Shown here: positions 3,001-6,000 of the stretch, piece by piece | How the letters are laid out: each line of letters starts with the position of its first letter | Numbering within the stretch: position 1 is the first letter of the stretch | IMG/VR virus record: IMGVR_UViG_2802429242_000009 | Coordinates: 1-33,994 of that record | Strand: one strand, 5' to 3' | Source of the DNA: a virus | Taxonomy: Duplodnaviria > Heunggongvirae > Uroviricota > Caudoviricetes | DNA length: 33,994 nt | Position numbers: made by a program

Positions 3001-6000
3001 TTACCCATTCGGAATCAATCTTGATTGATATGCCGCATTCAACGCCTCCGTTGTTGGGAATATCGCGGTATTCATTGCGCCATCCTGCTTTGCCGCAAAC
3101 ATCGTCCAGGCGTTTCATGATTGCCCTGTTCGTGACATAAGCCAGCACCATAGCCCACACCTTTCCATCGCGTGTTTTACCGCTTTGCTGTATTCGCCAT
3201 TCGATATCTTCAGGGCTGAATGGCTCATCGAATTTATTCAAATCCATAATTCACCTCAGAATGGACACGGCCCAAGGAAATAACGCTGATTTAATACTTC
3301 GACTCGGGACAAATTAAGGCATACCCGCATTCCTTCGCGGTCGCCATTATGGCGATACCAGAGAGCTTTCTGCGTGTACATGCGTCTCTGTAACTTGCTC
3401 TCCTTCACTGTGGTTGCAAGTGGCATGAATATCTCCTTCGTTACCGATTAATTCTTTCATCTGACGAATGAATTCTTCGTCTGACCAGTTATCTGCAAAA
3501 CTCATTTCCTGCGATACCACGGAAGGTTGATAGCTGATTTCATCGCTTTATTTGCTTCAAGCCACATTTTTGAATCACCAATAAATCTGGCTATTACTGC
3601 TTTGTTTTGTGCAGCACGAAGCATCTGGTGATTGATGGCTATTTCATTGCGCATAATAAGACCTCAACTCTTTTCCATCCGTCACGTAATTTACGGGTGA
3701 TTCGTTCAAGTAAAGATTCATTTAATTGGAAGGCACCCATGCGAGCGCCTCCCGCGATTGCGTAAATCATGGGTGGTTCCTTATGTTGGTTTTATTAGTA
3801 GGTTATTTTTGTTGCGAATACTTCGCCTTTTACGATGGCTGTTATGATATTTTTAGCAACATCTTCTGATGCGCCAACCTTGATAAGGTCAGCAAGTATT
3901 TTGTTATTTACTTCTTTCCGGTGAGCTTTATCCTTTGCTCTACGCTCTTCTTCGTCCTTGATTCTTTTTTCTTCTGCTATTCTGGCTTGCTCTTTTACTT
4001 CAGCCTCGCGCCGGATTCGTTCAGCCTCCTCCTGTGCTTTTCGGCGTTCTGCTTCAATTGCCGCCTGCTTTTCTCTTTCAGCTCGTTCTGCTGCCTCTTT
4101 TGCTTCGCGCTGTGCTCGTTGCTCGGCTTCAATACGTTCACGCTCTGCACGTTCCGCTGCTGCCTTAGCTTCTGCTTCTCGCCTTGCTGCTGCTTCAATT
4201 TCGGCTTTTGCCTTTGCTTCGGCTTCAGCTCTGGCTTTCTCTTCAGCTTCTCTTTTTAAGCGTTCTTCATGCTCTCGCTTTTCCTGCTCCGCTTTGAGTC
4301 TTGCCTCTTCTCTTTGGCGGTCAAATTCGCGATCCATCAAAATCGCTATTTCATGGTCAGACTCAATTTGCTTTGCGAGAGCTTCAGCTGCTGCCTTAGC
4401 TTCTTCTTCGGCTTTAATCCGTGCCTGTTCCTCCTCATAATCAGTAAGAGGCTGGCGCGCCTTGGCTTTCAGTTCATCAAGGCGATCGCGCACTGTCTTG
4501 CGGTTGGCATCAATTAGCTTTGGAATTTCCTTCAGTTCAGCAACAAGGTCTTTGCCAAGACCATCGAGATATGTTTTCGTCTGCGCAACTTTATACGCCA
4601 GAGAAGCGATCTCCTTTCTGCCCTTTGCCGTTGTGATATCAGGCACAAAGGACATAACTTCACGTTCAACCTTTTGAAGGATTTCTTCAATCTGGTCGGC
4701 AGACTGAAATACAGTCATTGCATTTGCTTTTTCAATAACAACTAAATCTGTTACTTCACTCATATATATCCTCCGTCAAAAAAATTGCCCTCACACTGGA
4801 GGGCAAAGAAGATTTCCAATAATCAGAACAAGTCGGCTCCTGTTTAGTTACGAGCGACATTGCTCCGTGTATTCACTCGTTGGAATGAATACACAGTGCA
4901 GTGTTTATTCTGTTGTTTATGCCAAAGATAAAGGCCGACTATGCGGCCTCGGAAGGAAGCCCAATCATCTTATTCAAATCTTCTACCCGTAAAGCAGGAA
5001 GTGCTGTACTTGCTTTATCTGCTTCTTTTGGTAGCAATTCTTTGCTTTCAGGCCAAACTTCAATAAGTCGCTTAACTGTTGTGACTGAGTTTAAAGCAGC
5101 CCATACATTTGATTCGATATCCTTTTTCTTGGCTTCAAGTTTTTGTTGCAATGCGCAGATTTCATCAAACCTTTTTGTTATTTCGTGTTCTGCGTCAAAC
5201 ATGCATTTATCTTTTTCTGGGGTGGGGAGCAATATATCTTCACCGTTGCCGTCTTTTCCGTATGAATGCCAGCCAACCCTTCTTCCAGATACAGTCAGAT
5301 AAATCGAAGTAGAACGAACATCGCATGAGTAAAATGAACATCCCATCTTCTCAAGTTCTTCACTTATAGCTGCTAACTTGGATGATAACTGATCCACTTC
5401 CTCAGTTTTATTTTCCCCGCCAAACGCAATAACTCTGGCGTCAAGTGCAAGTTGGTTCTTTAACTTTGTTACTTCTTCAAGTTCAGTGAAAACTCCAGAC
5501 TTAATTAAAGCGTTACGAGCGATTTCCTCTTTCATTCTCGTAGTTAAGCGGATTGATGACATATTAATTCCTCTCAAATAAGTGGTTTGCTACCTAATTT
5601 CATTTTCTGGCGACCAACACAAGTCACGCCCATTTCACTGCGTGGCTTGCGGTAGTAAATACGGTTCTGTTTACGCTCGACTTCATCTGCCTTCTTGCAG
5701 CGAAGGCTGCCAAGTGATGCTGCTTTGTCTGCTCTGACGCAACCAGAGAGCTTTAGCGCAATTTTTCGCGCCAGTCGCTGCTCTTGCATTGCCTGTTCAC
5801 GTTGAGCCTGTCTGCGTGCTCTGCGGCGATTTCTGGCGTTATCGTCAGCCAGATATGTAATGACTACTGTCATGTTGACCTCCGGGAAGGTACACATCCT
5901 TGTGTGTCGATGATTATTTGTTTTTGCGTTCCCACATCCAGTCATCTACTTCAGACCAGATAGTGAAACCGAAGCAGATGGCGAATGTGGTAACTAAACC

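Follow-up and report, generated by a model that had tools for sequence, protein, structure and literature searches.

The window analysed here is the whole 33,994-nucleotide stretch of IMG/VR record IMGVR_UViG_2802429242_000009, DNA of an Sf6-like temperate phage of the Caudoviricetes. It was found that four minus-strand open reading frames (ORFs), corresponding to cIII, kil, and genes 30 and 29 of phage Sf6, are packed into 515 bases of this window (3256..3770), and that the last two, called g30 and g29 here, overlap by 80 nucleotides (nt). My reading is that all four are genuine small genes and that both frames of the overlap are translated, with selection detectable there in the g29 frame only; I would give this reading as a whole a probability of roughly 80%. 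All four genes are already annotated in the close relatives Sf6, HK022, and CUS-3, and to that extent the finding is already known. What is new here is the link of Sf6 gene 29 and HK97 gp42 to HK620 HkaM, the invariant Pro-Phe (PF) tail of these proteins, and the position of their genes at the head of three unrelated annealing-protein modules. An original prediction from the DNA alone had placed three to four genes of fewer than 60 codons in this interval, described them as invisible to the ORF track, and offered two alternatives for the overlapping pair: only one ORF is real, or both are translated. Four such ORFs are indeed present at the positions given there, their invisibility reflects the 60-codon cut-off and nothing more, and the evidence favours two real genes under unequal constraint.

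An open frame of about 50 codons alone proves nothing at this locus, since 125 ORFs of at least 25 amino acids overlap the first 8 kb of the window. What raises the four genes above chance is homology to Pfam and PHROG families together with codon-position substitution patterns. No plus-strand ORF from 3185 to 3869 matches a PHROG family. Over positions 3200-3800 the window shares 98.8% identity with Sf6, and 98.7% with both IME10 and CUS-3. The original Sf6 record (AF547987) has genes 28-33 in the same order, and its genes 32, 31, 30, and 29 are the four ORFs with the same 80-nt overlap, labelled as cIII-like, kil-like, "similar to HK97 gene 42.1", and "similar to HK97 gene 42", respectively. 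Both overlapping ORFs are also annotated in CUS-3 (ECRS218_0050-0053) and HK022 (42, 42.1, 43, 44). Sf6, HK022, and CUS-3 have in common with the window the set of four genes, their order, and their overlaps (16 nt for cIII/kil, 4 nt with the sequence ATGA for kil/g30, and 80 nt for g30/g29). The window differs from the common allele by a few substitutions, such as S2P in g29 and T4A and V28A in g30, and from these phages in its mosaic flanking genes.

The g29 gene lies at 3256..3426 on the minus strand (56 amino acids from an ATG; equivalent to Sf6 gene 29 and HK022 gene 42), and g30 lies at 3347..3505 on the same strand (52 amino acids from an ATG; equivalent to Sf6 gene 30 and HK022 gene 42.1). 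A mechanically made ORF list begins g30 at a GTG at 3520 instead of the ATG at 3505. The frame of g29 is +1 relative to that of g30. Their dual-coding segment, 3347..3426 on the minus strand, contains codons 1-26 and two bases of codon 27 of g29, and codons 27-52 and the stop codon of g30. Among 77 distinct close sequences, 18 mutations were counted in this segment, and 11 of them fall on the third codon position of g29. Read in the g29 frame, 10 are synonymous and 8 non-synonymous, with a ratio of non-synonymous to synonymous rates (dN/dS) of about 0.26 (p=0.005 for the synonymous excess). Read in the g30 frame, the same mutations are 3 synonymous and 15 non-synonymous. Beyond the overlap, g29 has 24 synonymous and 20 non-synonymous mutations in these copies (p=4e-4, dN/dS about 0.35), and 21 of the 31 differences from a 65%-identical Enterobacter phage copy are at codon position 3 in the g29-only part. 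As judged from these substitution patterns, the C-terminal half of g30 reads through the 5′ end of g29 without detectable constraint. The simplest reading is an asymmetric overprinting, in which g29 has occupied the slot for longer and in more phages, and the tail of g30 runs into the g29 gene. The pair would be a clean natural case of this kind, with constraint on one frame and the other left free, and single mutations can knock out g29 or g30 while being silent in the other gene.

The g29 product matches phrog_1723 over its full length (4.5e-35), and in BLASTP it is 34% identical over 50 amino acids to HkaM of phage HK620 (NP_112046; E=1e-9). With high confidence, g29 can be regarded as a real gene and a homologue of hkaM. 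The two proteins share a length class, a predicted two-helix layout, a ...FL.x..PF ending, and a gene position directly before the annealing-protein gene. They differ in that the tail of HkaM is three residues longer and acidic (SVPSELPF, as against GPCPF in g29), in that HkaM precedes the Sak4 ATPase while g29 precedes a Rad52-like protein, and in that the HkaM gene is not overlapped by a g30-type gene. HkaM was described as an orphan of unknown function encoded upstream of sak4 (Hutinet et al. 2018, PMC5928155), and a search of the literature on HkaM, gp42, or mimics of the single-stranded DNA-binding protein (SSB) tail yielded no functional study beyond that one. Homologues of g29 in other genera retain its invariant residues at identities as low as about 32%. 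An exhaustive profile search among 1.84 billion representatives returned only 18 clusters, and the family is therefore a narrow one of enterobacterial phages. Homologues without g30 were found in Erwinia phage Eho59 (gp43, 46% identity, whose upstream gene overlaps it by 4 nt only), in Salmonella phage ABTNLsp11242 (80% identity, with its own Shine-Dalgarno (SD) sequence after a non-coding spacer), in a Salmonella Kentucky phage contig, and in the IMG/VR lambdoid contigs L196-L205, where the gene is placed directly after kil or cIII.

The AlphaFold2 (AF2) model of g29 is a helical hairpin (helices at residues 7-26 and 30-49) with a mean predicted local distance difference test (pLDDT) score of 84, and its tail (residues 51-56) has a mean pLDDT of 58. 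A Foldseek search of this model against the PDB gave non-specific helical hairpins only (E >1), and neither g29 nor g30 has a match in Pfam, NCBIfam, or PDB sequence searches. The diverse g29 alignment contains no conserved stretch of 7-10 columns, and single-protein scans with P0074 and P0080 gave nothing in viral contigs. A beta-clamp-binding motif (QLxLF type) was considered in the g29 sequence NQRYFLG and was rejected because the Gln residue is not conserved in the family. Peptides unique to the g29 product are VEVLNQR and YFLGPCPF, and MSFADNWSDEEFIR is unique to the g30 product.

An SD sequence GAAGGAG lies at 3433..3439 (minus strand), 6 nt 5′ of the g29 ATG and inside the N-E-G-D codons of g30. 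Its predicted duplex with the anti-SD sequence (-8.8 kcal/mol) is the strongest among the four small genes. It is kept in HK022-type copies and reads GAAGGAGG in the Enterobacter phage. At the other end of the gene, the stop codon TGA of g29 is fused to the SD sequence (GAGGTG) of the annealing-protein gene at 3248..3258 (minus strand), whose ATG follows 8 nt after the stop. At all 15 diverse loci compared, the next ATG comes 7-11 nt past the stop of the g29 homologue, and in 14 of them the next gene encodes an annealing protein (Rad52_Rad22, ERF, or AAA_24/Sak4). The exception is ABTNLsp11242, which has an HNH endonuclease gene between g29 and erf. In the reading preferred here, g29 would initiate independently at its strong internal SD sequence and ATG. 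It would open the recombination module as its first cistron, and its stop codon would couple it to the gene of the annealing protein.

All g29/HkaM homologues examined end with F-L-[G/S/A]-x(2-5)-P-F-COOH, and the tail of g29 is FLGPCPF. The family definition, consisting of this tail and an invariant core, was derived in this analysis from 16 diverse members, whose alignment, extending down to 32% identity, has six invariant columns (S, A, E, F, P, and F), three of them in the tail. The codons for the tail Pro and Phe and the stop codon vary synonymously across 15 loci, which indicates that the tail is conserved as protein. The window has 254 ORFs with a length of 40 amino acids or more, and only two of them end in PF, namely g29 and the phage SSB gene (…DDSDIPF); these two flank the annealing-protein gene. 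The latter lies at 2540..3247 (minus strand), corresponds to Sf6 gene 28, and encodes a single-strand annealing protein of the Rad52/Rad22 family (PF04098, 5e-26; phrog_1097, 1.6e-129). In the ORF list, the SSB gene occupies 2066..2539 on the same strand and ends with ...NFDDSDIPF.

The ending resembles the C-terminal tip of SSB proteins (...DDDIPF in Escherichia coli and ...NDYPPF in HK620), which serves partner proteins as a docking site and also terminates with Pro-Phe-COOH. The tail of g29 is predicted to be flexible, and members of the family often have Glu or Asp three to four residues before the end (GEQPF, SELPF, DELPF). Unlike SSB, g29/HkaM proteins have no oligonucleotide-binding (OB) fold and no single-stranded DNA (ssDNA)-binding domain. 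In HK620, the last six residues of SSB (NDYPPF) load Sak4 onto SSB-coated ssDNA (PMC5928155), and the g29/HkaM genes share their module with the gene of an SSB whose tip serves to load the annealing protein (PMC5928155). As a speculation, my preferred guess for the action of g29 is that its invariant PF tail is a docking peptide in the manner of the SSB tip. It is conceivable, and in my estimate rather unlikely, that g29/HkaM proteins are a new class of SSB C-terminal-tip mimics, whose hairpin of 56-62 amino acids presents a PF tail that docks in the SSB-tip pocket. The pocket would then be that of the annealing protein of the phage, be it Rad52-like, Erf, or Sak4, or that of a host enzyme that is a client of SSB, such as ExoI, RecQ, RecO, or PriA. 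If this is true, the docking would tune or protect phage recombination intermediates, and the acidic, Arf-like g30 would be a co-evolving partner of g29, which would account for their common 251-bp module and for the tolerance of the fusions described below.

A different small protein with such an ending was also seen. HK022 (locus L171, 1987-2370), CUS-3 (L002, 503-886), and locus L202 (3785-4183) encode a protein of 127-132 amino acids that is annotated as a "likely analog of P22 Abc1". It is unrelated to P22 Abc1, has an SSB-like acidic end (EYDDSIPF, DDWDIPF), and has no Pfam match in these three loci. Its features suggest a miniature SSB-like protein encoded downstream of Erf.

The g30 product matches phrog_2123 (1.8e-40). 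Its conserved segment is the N-terminal stretch of about 20 residues, MSFADNWSDEEFIRQMKELIG, which is predicted to form a short helix and contains the motif WSDEEFI. Both the Enterobacter phage and IMG/VR locus L182 keep this head at about 27% nucleotide divergence. In codons 2-20, the differences at codon positions 1, 2, and 3 in three deep comparisons are 3, 3, 9; 3, 3, 11; and 4, 0, 9. In phages mEpX1, HK140, and SEN22, the head occurs as a free-standing ORF of 35 amino acids with an acidic tail (…NQHKEQEKDDDSDSE), which precedes RecT or exonuclease VIII (ExoVIII) modules where there is no g29. In every context examined, including mEpX1 and SEN22, g30 is coupled by an ATGA to whatever gene is upstream. 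In the window this is the junction of the kil stop and the g30 start at 3502..3505 (minus strand), a site for translational coupling. The SD sequence of g30 itself is weak (-4.3 kcal/mol with the anti-SD) and, with a spacing of 1 nt, too close to the start.

Indels in the unique part of intact g30 copies are in frame only. A 15-nt deletion in phiKp_30 (L168, 1137-1280) removes DNWSD from the conserved head, P0030 and P0049, which are from prophages of Salmonella Chester and E. coli, have tandem duplications of 21 nt that give two or three copies of EFIRQMK, and L182 differs by one codon in length. By this sequence evidence, the g30 peptide tolerates length changes while the frame is kept. The length of the product also varies with the position of the stop codon (52, 54, or 56 amino acids). 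From these patterns, g30 is probably a real gene that is constrained as a protein in its first half only. It would start on the stop codon of kil through the ATGA, its functional part would be the N-terminal 20 or so residues, and its last 26 codons would run on into g29 until the first stop codon.

The original prediction had also put the overlapping pair in the arf position. The slot is indeed that of P22, where Arf (PF17585) is encoded between kil and the annealing protein, and the likeness is confined to g30, because g29 is an HkaM homologue and is not Arf-like. P22 Arf and g30 are in the same size class (47 and 52 amino acids), are acidic, and share [FW]SDEEFI near the N-terminus, while the rest of the sequence is unrelated. 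Moreover, g30 adjoins Rad52-like, Erf, Sak4, and RecT modules, not Erf alone. Formal membership in the Arf family was rejected as too weakly supported: g30 has no match to Pfam PF17585 at E <=1, a weak match to the Arf family phrog_2445 (E=0.043 over 22 residues), a BLASTP match to P22 Arf limited to the 7-residue motif (E=0.012), and a profile-profile (hhalign) probability of 17.7% over 18 columns. Arf stands for accessory recombination function (Poteete et al. 1991, as cited in PMC12315714), and it aids Erf-mediated recombination by an unknown mechanism (PMC12315714).

Several observations weigh against two translated and functional genes in the overlap. The overlap is the most diverged segment in the comparison with the Enterobacter phage (35 of 80 nt differ, 56% identity; 11 of 26 residues are identical at the N-terminus of g29 and 6 of 26 at the C-terminus of g30), and it therefore gives no sign of double constraint. 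Its length was rejected as evidence for coding, since random synonymous recoding of g29 leaves 26 or more codons of the g30 frame open in about 44% of cases. In the close population, the unique part of g30 has 7 synonymous and 18 non-synonymous mutations (dN/dS about 0.77, not significant), one natural copy (L019) has a stop at g30 codon 8 with g29 intact, and most of the distant g29-bearing modules are without g30. The natural fusions of the two ORFs imply that separate expression is not strictly required or that the genes are dispensable. No Ribo-seq or proteomics expression data were found for g29 or g30. As for function, the g29 tail GPCPF is without the acidic residues of the SSB tip, and sak4 and ssb alone reproduced the recombineering effect of the whole HK620 module (PMC5928155), so that HkaM was dispensable in that assay.

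Some of these observations are also what would be expected if only g29 were functional. In that case g30 would be a relay or leader ORF, or a plain open frame, that serves to bring ribosomes from kil to the start of g29, and its peptide would itself be without function. I regard this as doubtful. The 15 non-synonymous changes among 18 in the g30 tail, the dN/dS of its unique part, and the natural nonsense allele would fit it, as would the distant modules, which mostly lack g30 and have g29 coupled by an ATGA directly to kil or cIII. It would also agree with the Prokaryotic Genome Annotation Pipeline (PGAP), which usually annotates just one of the two genes (in four inspected E. coli genomes, g29 in three and g30 in the fourth). 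However, a relay has no need of a head that is conserved as protein across about 27% nucleotide divergence with a third-position bias, and the same head is an independent 35-amino-acid gene where no g29 exists to relay to. In addition, g30 resembles P22 Arf, a protein with a genetic phenotype, in its motif, size, acidity, and position, and g29, with its own strong SD sequence, needs no relay. The opposite possibility, a real g30 with g29 as no more than a chance ORF across its 3′ region and the spacer behind it, is hardly credible. Gene callers do favour g30 in some data sets (P0039 is on 364 contigs, and P0034 has 511 member sequences), and g30 alone is annotated in the HK75 record and by PGAP on HK022-type copies. 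Against this stand the conservation of g29 with its invariant residues in other genera, its synonymous excess, strong SD sequence, and confident predicted fold, and its occurrence without g30.

Protein databases contain many ORFs of 81-82 amino acids in which the head of g30 is fused to the body of g29, and the points of fusion are spread over the overlap. Most are singletons, which is consistent with 1-nt indels or assembly errors, while the fusion P0019 is on 36 E. coli contigs and HK97 gp42 is an 83-amino-acid fusion of this kind, with gp42.1 as an internal start in the same frame. Could a fusion of about 82 amino acids, made by programmed +1 frameshifting, be the functional product, and the separate ORFs its unshifted by-products? 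Genomic fusions of just this composition do occur and are tolerated, and the overlap region contains GAAGGAG, which resembles an SD sequence, a feature also of prfB. Yet no slippery or hungry-codon motif is visible on reading the overlap, RNA folding around the g29 start (3380-3520, minus strand) is not significant (z = -1.26), and the junctions are scattered, as they would be for random indels or assembly errors. Many phages have g29 alone with its own start. The AF2 model of a natural fusion (P0001) has a pLDDT of about 60 for residues 1-30, with a low-confidence N-terminal helix and no confident packing on the g29 hairpin. Programmed frameshifting was rejected on the lack of a slippery site, the scattered junctions, and the lack of significant RNA structure, and I consider the fusion very improbable as the functional product. 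Two separately translated genes, with constraint in the overlap on g29 only, are preferred here.

HK97 (L169) differs from HK022 and CUS-3 at 1066-1317 and 1933-2322 by apparent indels in two module genes, gp42 and gp40. Its small SSB-like gp40 ends with ...DDSNPILI instead of ...DDSIPF. One possible explanation of these indels is mutation of the laboratory strain in genes that it can do without, and another is that the changes are linked.

The kil gene (3502..3654, minus strand, 50 amino acids; Sf6 gene 31) matches Pfam Lambda_Kil (PF06301) with E=1.7e-20 and 72.6 bits, as against a gathering threshold of 27.6, over model positions 1-31 of 31. It also matches phrog_2055 (1.2e-35), and its product is identical in sequence to the Kil of HK97 and HK022. 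With lambda Kil, 17 of 30 residues are identical (57% over 30 amino acids). A Kil-like product had been proposed for this ORF, with similarity to Kil proteins as one point to check; that similarity was found. The operon position is also that of lambda kil. The lambda protein has 47 amino acids, the N- and C-terminal ends differ, and the gene is followed by gam in lambda and by g30 and g29 in the window. Lambda Kil is an FtsZ/ZipA-dependent division inhibitor according to Haeusser et al. 2014, as cited in PMC9836094, and by homology the kil peptide of the window would be a lambda-type inhibitor of FtsZ and cell division. In L196, L198, L203, and L205, the kil slot has an ORF of 35 amino acids instead (e.g., MDIVKALQLLAVDASRVGNNDLFQVAYSLFYRGLK), about 104 nt upstream of the g29 homologue and coupled to it by an ATGA. 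It has no Pfam match in these four loci and may be a divergent Kil-type peptide.

The cIII gene (3639..3770, minus strand, 43 amino acids; Sf6 gene 32) passes the threshold of Pfam Lambda_CIII (PF02061; E=4e-15, 56.0 bits against a gathering threshold of 25.7) and matches phrog_550 (1.6e-20). In BLASTP, 24 of 35 residues are identical to lambda cIII (69%, E=1e-13), which agrees with the clear cIII homologue of the original prediction. The activity of cIII is carried by a conserved central amphipathic helix (lambda residues ~14-37), and this core, ESLLERITRKLRDGWKR, is unchanged relative to lambda. As in lambda, the gene is upstream of kil and overlaps it. The lambda protein has 54 amino acids, and its C-terminal 20 residues are replaced by VEVLLCAMK in the window. 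The short form is due to a mosaic joint (~3656) to the HK97-type kil module, which falls inside the 3′ end of cIII. The terminal LCAMK comes from kil-linked DNA, and the same five-residue tail is present in the otherwise different cIII allele of HK97 and HK022. From its homology, the product would be a short form of the lambda-type lysogeny factor, an inhibitor of the FtsH protease. In the third frame over cIII (3644-3721, minus strand), a 25-amino-acid ORF that is out of frame with kil matches the N-terminal part of the 89-position "Kil" family phrog_2461 (E=1.5e-5). This match probably reflects over-long Kil annotations elsewhere that read cIII DNA in another frame.

The g30-g29 pair is common in host genomes. 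At at least 80% of its length, the 250-bp pair was found in 856 of 5,426 complete E. coli genomes, and its treatment by automated annotation is inconsistent. In RefSeq (NC_005344, NC_002167, NC_002730), both small ORFs and HK620 hkaM are named "recombinase", a name inherited from phrog_1723 and phrog_2123. This label is implausible for proteins of 52-62 amino acids, which have no match to a catalytic or DNA-annealing domain, g29 being a bare hairpin, and it looks like guilt by adjacency. From what is known of their families, g29 and g30 may have accessory roles in the recombination module. The molecular roles of Arf, Abc1, and HkaM remain unknown (PMC12315714, PMC5928155), and the HkaM link and the PF tail offer a way to test how such accessory factors act in phage recombination and in recombineering. 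Otherwise, the finding mainly confirms that short-ORF cut-offs hide real phage regulators.

Recurrent alignment boundaries in 160 related IMG/VR loci lie at about 3656, at 3505 (the g30 ATG), and at 3255 (after the g29 stop). The g30 and g29 genes move as one mosaic unit of 251 bp (3255..3505) between differing kil and annealing-protein alleles. The interval would belong to the early-left (PL) operon of a lambdoid phage of the Sf6/P22 type, in its promoter-distal part, where the four small genes would be tightly packed and translationally linked. On the upstream side they are flanked by a coiled-coil gene (3795..4763, 322 amino acids). For the first 12 kb of the window, the best single phage record is IME10 (98.1% identity), and none covers more than 66%. 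The modules of the window are known from lambdoid and P22-like phages, and their mosaic combination is new.

Downstream early-left ORFs are present on the minus strand at 305-571, 1267-1563, and 1577-2056. One of the downstream early-left genes is an 88-amino-acid ORF with a CPFCGG motif, which may be Lar-like. The ORF in the Abc2 position and a Cys/His-rich ORF of 159 amino acids, also downstream, have no NCBIfam match. Sf6 has other genes (25 and 26) in part of this downstream region, which points to local mosaicism.

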